A stretch of DNA of 64,000 nt from Escherichia coli. Lineage in GTDB: Bacteria > Pseudomonadota > Gammaproteobacteria > Enterobacterales > Enterobacteriaceae. Shown here one piece after another: positions 50,101-53,100 of this stretch. Positions within the stretch are counted from its first letter, which is position 1, and each line of letters starts with the position of its first letter. The stretch lies in NCBI RefSeq assembly GCF_011045215.1, contig NZ_CP049201.1; one strand, given 5' to 3'. The position numbers were made by a program.

Positions 50101-53100
50101 GCTAATTGAGCATTGACATCCGCTATATAATTTATATGATTACATTTTTTCTTACACTCATCATAATTTTCGATAGGATAAATTAATGGCCTTCCTTTGA
50201 TATCTCTCTCAAGCCCAAACCCGTATTTTTTTATTAAAACCATTTCATCCGCAGTCGATTGAAAGGAATAGAAAAATATAATATTTACGATTGTCATTAT
50301 TATGATTTTTTTTATAGCTTGCAGCATTAATATATTTCTCGACTTATTAGTTAATGGAGAAGTGCTTTTTCTAATTCCGCTATTTTTTTCTTAACTGAAT
50401 TGCTTAATATTTCATCATTAATCGAGTCTATCTCACTTTCAATTAATCTTATTTCAAAATATCTTTCTATGTTATATGCATTCTCAAATATTTGATCTTT
50501 TTGTTTAGAGATCAGTTTAGTTGCAATACGGATATGTTCGTCATATGAAACTTCATCCTCTTTGCACGTTGAATATTTATCAGTAGTTGTATAATTCTGT
50601 GACCACATACCACCTTTTTTATTATCCCCATAATACCACTGAATATGAGACATTTCATGACATAAAGTAGCAACATGAGAATCCTTTCCCGTTACTGGAT
50701 TTTTTTGCCATCTCTATACTCAAATTTTGCGCCTATGTTAATTATATAGGGCATATCCTTACTTGGGCTGACGAATGCTGCAAATTCATTACAACCTGTA
50801 TAATTTATAAAACTGCTCATTGTTAAATCATTAGCTATAATCATTAATCTTCTCACACCATCCATCATAAGAAATCTAGCATTCATGCGCCTAACTGTAT
50901 TATGTCCATATTTTCTTATATTAACTTCCTTATTTCCTTTAACACCAAAGATCTTACTGAAATCATATTCCTCCTGTGCTCCCCATCTCAAAAGATCATC
51001 TGCTCTTTTTATCAAAACCAACTTTTGTGCCTTACGAACCTTATCAATCATTATTTTAAAATGATCAGTTATTTTTTGCTCTTTCACACATTCTTCTGGC
51101 TCTGGCTTTGGTTGTCCAGAAGTTTGATTATTATCGTCCATAGTGTCCTTCCATTGAGAGAAAATCATCATTCGCAAATAGCAACTAAAAAGCAGCATTA
51201 CTTGACCTTTCCCTGCATAACAATATTTATAAAATAATACGTTTTATGATCTCACCTTGGGCTCCCAACAAGATAATTTCAGTTTTAAAGACTTTCACGA
51301 AAAAATATAGAAATACCTCACCACCCTTCACTTACCAATTAATCTCACAGGAAATCCAACTTCCTTACCACAAATACAATCCCAAGTAACATTTCCCAAA
51401 ATTTTTGATACTTTAGGCTGCAATGGCATTATTGACATTATAAATTTATCAAGTTCTTCGCTATATTTAATTCCCTTTATATTTCTTATTATTGATATTC
51501 TAGCAGTAAAGATAGCCGTCTCTCCATCTACACTAAAAGTGTAATTACAATTTTTTGTAATCTCATCAAATTCAACCGATAACAAATCAATATTATGGTT
51601 TGTAAACACTATGCCCATTCCATACCTCCTTAAATTCCTGTTCAGTCATCAGATATCGACTCCCTTGATATGGATCATATATTATCACATTCCCAGCATC
51701 ATCAACACCCTTAACAAGTACCCAATGTCCTACTTTACTTCCAGAATCCCACATCATTGCTCCCCATGAACCAGTATTACTGAGGGCATATAAACTAGAT
51801 TCGCTCACTGCATTCCCTTCCCAGCCGACATCAAATTTATTAAGCTTGTTTGCCAGCGACGTCATAGATGTTAATTCTGTTCCAATTACATTTTGCGTGA
51901 CAAAAATATACCTATCCCTAAGCAACATTTCCCCACAGGCCGCTCCACAGCCTGTTAAAGTCAATTGCTTTATTACATTTGAATCTAAAACCTCATCAAA
52001 TACTGTCCAATTGCCACCAGCACCACCTTCTAAAACTACCGGCTCTACAAATACTTTCCCAGAGATATTTTCTTCTGGTATTTTTGCGGGTATCATAAAG
52101 CCCCATAAAAAGCTGGAAAAATGCTCCAGAGCAATCTGATCACCATTATTTGCATCCATTATCATTTTTTTAAGTGCATCCCATGCTTGCCCATTTATCA
52201 ATGAATCACTAATATTAAATAAAGCCTGTTCTTTTTCGTTTAAATTTATATTTGCCTGTTCACATAACCCATCTTCGCCTATCGGGCAAGCAACCGTTGC
52301 CGTTGCCGTATCTAACAGAGCATCGAATGTAACTAAGGCTAAATCCGCCACACCATGTAAAGTGGTGATTGCTCCATTCCCCATTTGAGTAAGTGTGTTC
52401 TCTCCAAACCATTCTCTAATTTGAGATTTATCTCCTTCAATACCATTCCTGAGAGATTCTCTGATATTCTTTATTGAAAAAAACTCCCCCCATGATTGGT
52501 CAGGATCTTTTATTTGGAATAAATCATTTTTAACCTCAGGTGAAATATCTCCGTCAAAAATATTACCAACAGAGAGGAGATCCTTCAGAAGCAGTAAATC
52601 GTGTATTACTTCAGCAGTCCTTTCATAATTAAAACTTCTATCAATGACAGAAATCATTGGTGATTTTATTTTGGTATATAATTTACCAAGGCAGTTATGG
52701 TTATTAATCCCAACAACTGAACCATGATAAGCAACAGGTTTCCCTTCTATTGTTACAGTCGGACTTCCCGTTAAAATAACACAGTCACCCGTTCCTTGAG
52801 ATGTACCGGATATGACACCTTTACCGGCATTACTTTGAGTTCCAGCAATCACTGAACCAACATTTAAAGCTCTGCATCCACGCGCCCATACCGTTGAACT
52901 GTACTGTCTTTCACTATCTAAAGTCTGGTAACTGTCAAAAGGAACCTTGTAACCTCCTACTTCACATACATCTGGTGAAGTACACACGACTCTAAATCTA
53001 GATTCACCATCCCCGATATGATAGTTACCCATAATATTTTTTCCCTATACATTCAGGAATAATACAACTCAGCACTCCTTCTTTCATTCCAAAAAAATCA

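Follow-up and report, generated by a model that had tools for sequence, protein, structure and literature searches.

An M35-like T6SS effector gene split by a one-nucleotide homopolymer frameshift in a vgrG island of Escherichia coli

Background

The displacement of effector-immunity modules by incoming ones, by which orphan modules arise, is an established concept for T6SS, Rhs, and CDI arrays. Effectors annotated as M35 peptidases have been described in E. coli: the M35-like effector of strain BCE049 is toxic only if directed to the periplasm (PMC7904677), and the M35-PAR protein of E. coli PAR is toxic, is neutralised by the downstream protein, and is loaded through a VgrG-proximal DUF2345 element (PMC10673891). 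In P. aeruginosa, the C-terminal metallopeptidase of VgrG2b carries an HExxH motif, is delivered by the T6SS, is toxic only in the periplasm, and has PA0261 as its immunity protein (PMC6899460).

In the window analysed here (64,000 nucleotides of E. coli contig NZ_CP049201.1), the initial annotation had described an HExxH gene split by a frameshift in a homopolymer and had proposed a second effector, a degraded orphan module, or a slipped-strand switch. The locus turns out to be an ordinary and already known system: it is very probably the decaying pseudogene of an orphan T6SS effector, split by ordinary slippage from A8 to A7 after the end of its vgrG had been replaced. Neither phase variation nor programmed frameshifting finds support.

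Organization of the locus

With one A restored, the gene is 98-99% identical to the 'peptidase M35' of the yncG-pptA vgrG island of E. coli (WP_000342577.1 in strain 042; UTI89_C1677), with which it also shares the chromosomal site, the downstream partner, and the ISAs1 remnant (Table 1). Compared with 042, the window possesses A7 instead of A8 and Asn instead of Asp at codon 183, has lost the adjacent 3' end of vgrG, and exhibits a frameshift in the partner gene. The 'peptidase M35' of this island probably corresponds to 'M35-peptidase, module 5' of strain BCE049 (PMC7904677), a putative match, and the window gene is likely orthologous to the published M35-annotated E. coli effectors (PMC7904677, PMC10673891), with paralogues of 30-56% identity existing in E. 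coli as well.

In 042, the genes are arranged in the order PAAR, VgrG (801 aa), M35, and a 273-aa protein with a signal peptide, the M35 gene overlapping the end of the full-length vgrG; the same order, again with M35 overlapping the vgrG stop, is found in STEC299 and GN06156. The system of M35-PAR, DUF2345-PAR, and VgrG-PAR likewise has a small M35-annotated toxin after vgrG and an immunity gene downstream (PMC10673891), but its carrier consists of split genes, whereas the carrier of 042 is one VgrG protein. The 273-aa partner is probably the immunity protein of the M35 effector; neither Pfam (searched with the 273-aa form) nor NCBIfam gave a significant match for it.

In the window, the M35 gene is situated in the same island and followed by its partner, but lies 3.3 kb from vgrG. 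Positions 51187-54470 stand in place of 660 bp of the 3' end of the 042 vgrG, and this 3.3-kb segment comprises a different VgrG end, a DUF2169 gene, a PAAR-like toxin gene, and a 96-aa gene. Since the native end of vgrG is replaced, the M35 module is orphaned. As in other arrays with displaced modules, the new 3' module is found upstream and the old one downstream, decaying and without a carrier; however, the orphan immunity gene of the window is also broken, whereas in other arrays such genes are often retained. A scan for promoters and terminators yielded background levels only.

Table 1. Features of the M35 island in the window (positions in the window).
Feature	Position	Strand	Remarks
ISAs1-family transposase remnant	48979..49350	-	Bounds the island
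Partner gene, broken	49541..50327	-	219-aa ORF (49668..50327) and remnant (49541..49687); from comparison with 042
T8 on the coding strand (A8 on the plus strand)	49670..49677	-	T7 in 042 and PapM-32-1; frameshift shortens the partner gene
M35-like (aspzincin) T6SS effector pseudogene, 263 aa restored	50351..51141	-	Intact orthologues; profile and fold matches
C-terminal fragment ORF, 100 aa	50351..50653	-	First Met inside CHEMSH; lacks H162 and E163
Codon 183, AAC (Asn)	50594..50596	-	Asp in 20 of 22 aligned family members; putative third zinc ligand
HEMSH codons (H162-E163-x-x-H166 of the restored protein)	50645..50659	-	H162, E163, and H166 invariant in 22 homologues
N-terminal fragment, 149 aa from MDDNNQ	50692..51141	-	Ends ...DGKKIQ*; lacks the HExxH motif
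A7 tract, frameshift site (plus-strand TTTTTTT)	50700..50706	-	A8 in intact alleles: GGC AAA AAA AAT = G K K N
Remnant (45 bp) of the native vgrG 3' end	51142..51186	-	Homology to the 042 locus stops at 51186
96-aa gene	51328..51618	-	Overlaps the PAAR-like toxin gene at the latter's end; putative immunity gene for this toxin
PAAR-like (DUF4150) toxin, 479 aa, C39-like C-terminus	51593..53032	-	Incoming effector module
DUF2169 protein, 348 aa	53025..54071	-	
VgrG, 660 aa	54178..56160	-	C-terminus unlike that of the 801-aa VgrG of 042; without the TTR-like end found ahead of M35 in 042
PAAR protein, 94 aa	56179..56463	-	

The split gene

The pseudogene begins with MDDNNQ at position 51141, preceded by an AAGGA ribosome binding site, and ends with ...EKALLH followed by a stop. 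ORF 50692..51198 reads ...EYRDGKKIQ* through the A7 tract; its stop codon (50692-50694) lies two codons past the tract and not inside it, as had been stated initially. In the minus-strand translation, the second frame described at the same time is indeed present: the -1 frame is open across A7 (RWQKNPVTGKDSHVATLCHEMSH...), carries CHEMSH, and ends at the stop at 50351. The addition of one A to the tract results in GKKNPVTG... and in a protein of 263 aa from MDDNNQ, in agreement with the approximately 260 aa expected.

This restored protein aligns collinearly with the intact 'peptidase M35' (263 aa) of PapM-32-1, ECNB21-M121, and 042, all of which possess A8, such that the split is real and specific and not a chance pattern of ORFs. 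A8 is the ancestral state, and the window has lost one A. The break falls in the conserved catalytic core (xTGxDSxVSTLCHEMSH), just ahead of HExxH. Concerning the annotation, both ORFs are to be merged as one frameshifted pseudogene of an M35-like T6SS effector, and the 219-aa ORF is to be labelled a shortened copy of the partner gene.

Protein family and fold

The HExxH motif that characterizes the aspzincins (MEROPS M35) is present in the restored frame; in the window, it is severed from the N-terminal half of the protein. In column 183 of the family alignment, a nearly invariant Asp is found, nine residues after the second His in short members and after a GGMxTxD insertion in long ones, while the literal motif GTxDxxYG is absent from the family. 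Given this conservation and spacing, D183 is presumably the third zinc ligand, and its replacement by Asn, which is common to the window and PapM-32-1 alleles (a PapM-32-1-like clade), would cost function.

Searched with the single restored sequence, PF14521 scores E=0.0046, which does not reach the Pfam threshold; among 22 homologues, 2 match it at E<=0.001 and 16 at E<=0.1. Similarly, a phmmer search of the PDB with the single sequence returned marginal matches only, and the family profile was needed for recovering AsaP1 (E=9.8e-7) and GfMEP (E=1.5e-3). NCBIfam contains no family for the restored protein and four neighbours. In a Foldseek search of the PDB with the AF2 model (pLDDT 89.3, pTM 0.87), 1ge6, 2x3a, and 1g12 are the sole significant matches (probability 1.00, target-normalised TM 0.41-0.71), with 1ge6 and 2x3a at the top and a best TM of 0.71. 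By profile and modelled fold, the protein thus belongs with the M35 aspzincins, and zinc-dependent endopeptidase activity is predicted for its restored form.

With AsaP1 of Aeromonas salmonicida (2x3a) and the peptidyl-Lys endopeptidase GfMEP (1g12, 1ge6), the family shares the core xVTGxDSxxGTxxHExSH, in its short members the Asp nine residues past the second His, and the motif NA[D/Y]NxE[Y/R][F/Y] at the C-terminus. Despite these similarities, identity amounts to 16-18%, and the effector differs from both enzymes by an xxxGGMxTxD insertion between HExxH and the Asp, by an extra N-terminal helical region, and by a C-terminal helix; furthermore, it is a T6SS cargo and not a secreted pro-enzyme. 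The C-terminal domain of VgrG2b is a functional analogue, as it is an HExxH zinc peptidase followed by a small immunity ORF, but this domain, of DUF4157 type, is fused to VgrG (PMC6899460), whereas the M35 effector is a separate gene. As a family for the window protein it was rejected, being absent from both the profile matches (E<=10) and the Foldseek matches.

Tract length among E. coli genomes

Among 520 complete E. coli records carrying the gene, the tract is A8 in around 479, A7 in 33, and A9 in 1, corresponding to 93% A8 (479 of the 513 scored copies). The A8 copies constitute one intact gene, mostly named "peptidase M35", whereas PGAP labels the copies of STEC299 and GN06156 as 'frameshifted'. 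A7 is found on at least four haplotype backgrounds (the window on the PapM-32-1 haplotype, O145 on that of ECNB21, GN06156 on that of 042, plus STEC299), and the loss of one A is therefore recurrent. In the O145:H28-type group, all 26 records, deposited by several submitters, possess A7, and there is no revertant. With at least four independent losses and this uniform group, the tract may serve as a lineage marker, and caution is advisable for pangenome gene counts.

Eight genomes with the gene in orphan context still keep A8, so orphaning alone does not force loss; conversely, A7 extends beyond the orphans, seven copies with this tract being situated in native context.

Origin of the split

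The gene encodes, in the reading that we prefer, the E. coli 'peptidase M35' T6SS cargo effector, which probably acts in the periplasm of prey cells; by analogy with the published homologues, its toxicity may be expected there. The TTR-like C-terminus of the native vgrG product probably loads it. The replacement of the vgrG 3' end by the 3.3-kb segment would have left the M35 pair without its cognate carrier, and relaxed selection may then have permitted replication slippage in the A/T homopolymers to which AT-rich Lys and Phe codons give rise. The change from A8 to A7 would have cut the catalytic domain in two, and the substitution of Asp183 by Asn and the frameshift in the partner would represent further decay. 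Two readings proposed at the outset are thereby reconciled: the gene is an M35-like T6SS effector, and the module is a degraded orphan, its cognate vgrG end replaced, codon 183 altered, and the partner frameshifted. A trickle of full-length protein by transcriptional or ribosomal slippage on A7 is conceivable. The locus is a neat case of a T6SS module displaced by an incoming one and then eroding at AT-rich homopolymers; its importance beyond annotation is small.

The third initial proposal, a slipped-strand switch, does not find support as a regulated system. It would hold that A7/A8 and the other A/T tracts are selected as a phase-variable contingency switch toggling the effector and its immunity protein, which we regard as unlikely. 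Tract length does vary among otherwise identical sequences: the M35 tract has changed at least four times independently, becoming shorter as well as longer (A7 and A9), and among relatives without a single SNP across 1.7 kb, the only differences are at tracts, four in number and including T7/T8/T9 at position 50034. The partner gene, moreover, contains 7 runs of at least 7 bases, compared with 0.8 expected from base composition. However, synonymous-codon shuffles give 8.0 +/- 1.5 such runs, compared with 9 observed (P=0.37), such that the number of tracts is as amino-acid sequence and codon usage predict, with no excess over what the coding content requires. Frequent reversible ON/OFF changes within a lineage are not seen either, the prevalence of A8 and the uniform A7 of the O145:H28-type records both arguing against fast switching. 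The variable tracts are, in addition, located mainly in a gene that is already broken, so that their changes are neutral, and A/T tracts of 7-8 do not reach the length typical of phase-variable tracts. An extended form of this idea, in which the effector-partner pair would be a multi-tract contingency locus whose A/T7-9 tracts vary toxin and immunity between siblings, with leaky -1 slippage on A7 supplying a trickle of toxin, seems quite improbable to us.

An error of sequencing or assembly, with a true A8 and an intact gene, is very unlikely. Indel errors classically occur in homopolymers, several 1-nt homopolymer indels separate the window from its closest complete genome, and errors could account for the sporadic A7 and A9 copies of single complete genomes. 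Among complete E. coli genomes no exact match to the window was found, the best being PapM-32-1 (99.2% over 87% of 22 kb). Nevertheless, the exact 168-aa and 100-aa fragments recur in GCA_009766295.1 and in seven Logan SRA assemblies, the eight contigs representing separate runs and sources (one of the contigs being common to 7 samples), and one contig (L009, SRR11014969) shows 100% identity to the window across the 1721 bp of the effector-partner pair. With the exact split allele in eight independently sequenced contigs, an assembly error private to the window is not borne out. The A7 of all O145:H28-type records from several submitters points in the same direction, as does the distribution of the differences: homopolymers of at least 7 bases differ from PapM-32-1 in 5 of 10 cases within the island, but in 1 of 19 in the remainder of the window (one-sided Fisher p ~0.011), so they cluster in the island.

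Programmed recoding, by which the A7 allele would yield the full-length protein at a designed low level through -1 frameshifting or transcriptional slippage, is highly improbable. Runs of AAA Lys codons are slippery in E. coli, as in the A_AAA_AAG of dnaX, and a -1 shift on A7 restores exactly the wild-type GKKNPVTG. The zero frame, however, reads GGC AAA AAA ATC and contains no in-phase X_XXY_YYZ heptamer, and the 80 nt downstream do not fold significantly better than shuffled sequences (z=-1.64; 12 of 200 shuffles are equally or more stable), their sole helix beginning 17 nt from the tract. Nor is the frameshifted configuration conserved, given the predominance of in-frame A8, and D183N would persist in the protein so rescued.

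That the two ORFs are naturally separate genes, one for an adaptor-like N-terminal protein and the other for a small C-terminal one, as the automatic annotation of the O145 copies with a 'hypothetical protein' and a 'peptidase M35' might suggest, can be dismissed, because the second ORF starts inside HExxH, the break lies within the conserved core, the homologous E. coli loci are single 263-aa A8 genes, and E. coli, Salmonella, and Buttiauxella each encode the orthologue as one protein of about 262-270 aa.

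Reading frames

The M35 gene lies on the minus strand of the window (50351..51141), and its coding strand reads GGC AAA AAA ATC CAG TAA around an A7 run, the complement of plus-strand T7 at 50700-50706. The initial annotation let ORF 50692..51198 stop inside this run; its stop is in fact situated two codons past the run. The -1 frame across the run is open, reads RWQKNPVTGKDSHVATLCHEMSH... and stops at 50351, whereas the listed ORF 50351..50653 begins only with the Met within CHEMSH, the open frame extending further upstream. One inserted A yields a continuous protein of 263 aa (around 260 aa had been proposed), and intact homologues carry A8, so that the suggested splitting of an HExxH gene by a 1-nt homopolymer shift holds. 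The true start is MDDNNQ at 51141, with AAGGA in front; the ORF caller's longer reading from MLLFSCYL... is an artefact. The frameshift is situated 10 codons ahead of HExxH, which, judged from the sequence, rules out peptidase function for either predicted fragment.

Occurrence and tract length in E. coli

Megablast with window 50300-51250 detected the locus in 565 of 5,426 complete E. coli genomes, whose annotations usually name the gene "peptidase M35" or "M35 family metalloendopeptidase". In strains PapM-32-1, ECNB21-M121 and 042 it forms one uninterrupted CDS of 792 bp, whereas in O145 RM9872 it is split at the same position as in the window; the sole length difference in the alignment at the frameshift site is A8 (intact) versus A7 (split). 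Queries of 96-98 nt with A7, A8 or A9, for which one difference lowers identity below 99%, returned A8 in around 479 records, A7 in 33 (26 from an O145:H28-type group, seven from sporadic strains) and A9 in one (SCU-484). PGAP labels the copies of STEC299 and GN06156 "frameshifted". A7 occurs on at least four SNP haplotypes: the window has that of PapM-32-1 and GN06156 that of 042, each with the tract as sole difference, while the O145 haplotype is nearest to ECNB21-M121 and that of STEC299 to APEC E19035. This distribution shows that the A8 to A7 loss is recurrent in E. coli.

A second A7 tract of the gene (50383-50389, CDS position ~753) is A6 in O145 RM9872 and APEC E19035, and in the latter the CDS is annotated with 762 bp (253 aa) versus 792 bp (263 aa) when intact; this tract is thus polymorphic as well.

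Protein family

Compared singly with Pfam, the restored sequence exhibits weak matches (Aspzincin_M35, E=0.0046; Peptidase_M91, E=0.023); NCBIfam gave no family, and phmmer against PDB gave AsaP1 weakly (E=0.65). Homologues come from E. coli, Salmonella, Buttiauxella, Franconibacter and Rahnella, and in their alignment xTGxDSxVSTLCHEMSH and NAYNIERYF are invariant and Asp183 is nearly so. The profile of the family gives matches to AsaP1 (E=9.8e-7) and GfMEP (1.5e-3), both of them M35 aspzincins, and two members match PF14521 at E<=0.001. AF2 models the protein with confidence (pLDDT 89.3, pTM 0.87), and the only significant Foldseek hits of this model in PDB are GfMEP and AsaP1 (probability 1.0). 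These profile and model-based matches agree with the zincin fold considered earlier and justify the PGAP name "M35" as far as fold and superfamily are concerned. Divergent E. coli paralogues exist (homologues P0008, P0020 and P0023; 56%, 33% and 30% identity; 86, 142 and 754 member sequences), such that published 'M35' T6SS toxins need not be the present orthologue.

In short members of the family, the second His is followed nine residues later by the conserved Asp, the zinc-ligand spacing of the AsaP1 and GfMEP segments, from which we infer D183 as third zinc ligand. Codon 183 (50594-50596) encodes Asn in the window and PapM-32-1 and Asp in 20 of 22 aligned family members. With Asn at this presumed ligand position, even A8 copies that count as 'intact' in this clade may already be catalytically dead.

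Gene order and partner gene

Strain 042 has PAAR followed by VgrG (801 aa), M35, whose gene overlaps the vgrG stop, then a protein of 273 aa and lastly an ISAs1 remnant. A typical signal peptide, MLQAIKKIIIMTIVNIIFFYSFQSTA/DE, is recognisable by eye at the N-terminus of this 273-aa protein, for which Pfam and NCBIfam gave no family. In the window, 3.3 kb (51187-54470) stand in place of the 660 bp that in 042 encode the ~215 C-terminal residues of VgrG, a stretch that includes a TTR-like end. They comprise an alternative VgrG C-terminus, DUF2169, a DUF4150/PAAR-like toxin and a 96-aa gene, and only 45 bp of 042-type vgrG are left ahead of M35. With a GC content of 27-39% the island is AT-rich, and the ISAs1-family remnant bounding it is found in every compared strain.

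Features of the T6SS island and homopolymer tracts varying in the zero-SNP set
Feature	Window position	Remark
PAAR	56179-56463	first in window order
VgrG, 660 aa	54178-56160	after PAAR
DUF2169	53025-54071	after VgrG
DUF4150/PAAR-like toxin, C39-like end	51593-53032	after DUF2169
96-aa overlapping gene	51328-51618	followed by M35 pseudogene, broken partner gene, ISAs1 remnant
ISAs1-family transposase remnant, without N-terminus	48979-49350	next to pptA
Varying tract	50313	A8 or A7
Varying tract	50034	T7, T8 or T9
Varying tract	49583	A7 or A8

In O145 and ECNB21-M121, all that is left of the DUF4150/PAAR-like toxin is a C39 fragment of 111 aa adjoining a truncated tssI. In APEC E19035 (O2:K1; locus L015, 9478-14590), an ISCro1 insertion (IS66 family) splits the cognate vgrG ahead of M35, which is another route to carrier loss for the M35 module.

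The partner gene of the window is broken by T8 instead of T7 at 49670-49677 and by further changes downstream; in ECNB21-M121, O145 and PapM-32-1 it is disrupted in other ways. Seven sequences have zero SNPs over 1.7 kb (the window plus six of the eight contigs that encode its exact M35 fragments), and differences among them are confined to homopolymers (see table). A fourth tract, at 49677 (T8/T7), differs in contigs L008 and L013 and in PapM-32-1, all with three SNPs near the 3' end. Because tract lengths differ, the called partner products of the window and comparison contigs L007-L014 vary (263, 219, 106+113+58 or 91+113+58 aa). M35 and partner gene of 042 together contain nine runs of at least 7 bases, well over the 1.6 of a mononucleotide shuffle; their amino-acid sequence combined with codon usage predicts 8.0 +/- 1.5 (P=0.37), so the tracts arise as a by-product of AAA/TTT codons and are no added feature.

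Explanations of the split gene

We consider it probable that M35 is a T6SS cargo effector acting in the periplasm, whose carrier was lost to an incoming module and which is eroding by ordinary slippage. Recombination would have brought in the VgrG-end/DUF2169/PAAR-toxin module, and the carrier-less gene would then decay; the effector and degraded-module readings of the initial annotation are both retained herein. For BCE049, an O2:K1 E. coli, the "M35-peptidase" of a PAAR/VgrG effector locus is reported to inhibit growth only if directed to the periplasm (PMC7904677), and M35-PAR is toxic, is neutralised by its downstream gene and is loaded on VgrG via DUF2345 (PMC10673891); both are likely orthologues of the window gene. 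VgrG2b/PA0261 of P. aeruginosa (PMC6899460) is a functional analogue, but belongs to another family, DUF4157. The feature is a gene already known, in a common pseudogenised state.

Phase variation, the slipped-strand switch suggested earlier, would fit the recurrent tract change and the tract polymorphism; however, A8 makes up 93% of copies, all 26 records of the O145:H28-type group have A7, the A/T tracts are short, and the codon shuffle returns the run count as expected, which renders it unlikely.

A sequencing or assembly error is still less probable. Fragments of 168 aa and 100 aa exactly as in the window occur in the protein collection and adjoin each other on eight contigs from different sequencing runs (GCA_009766295.1 and seven Logan assemblies), one of which is common to seven samples, so that the split allele is no private error; L009, the Logan assembly of SRR11014969, is 100% identical to the window across the 1,721-bp pair. 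Compared with PapM-32-1, the five indels in the 48-kb core include no single-base change of a long A/T run, whereas 49012-50699 contains six 1-nt indels. Among the 29 homopolymers of at least 7 bases, 5 of 10 differ in the island versus 1 of 19 elsewhere (one-sided Fisher p ~0.011), a locality which argues against general sequencing error.

Programmed recoding on A7 is hardly credible: a -1 shift would restore the wild-type sequence, but the site has no in-phase heptamer, RNA structure is not significant (z=-1.64) and the frameshifted state lacks conservation. Two naturally separate genes are ruled out, the homologues being single genes.

Beyond the T6SS island, the only long-homopolymer difference from PapM-32-1 is a C7 run (C9 in that strain) at 37460-37470, placed by coordinate transfer between a leucine-rich-repeat gene and narU. 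By the same transfer, a 12-bp insertion at 14806 lies in dosP with the frame kept, and deletions of 5 bp at 12539 (digH-dosC) and 10 bp at 16466 (dosP-ddpX) appear intergenic.
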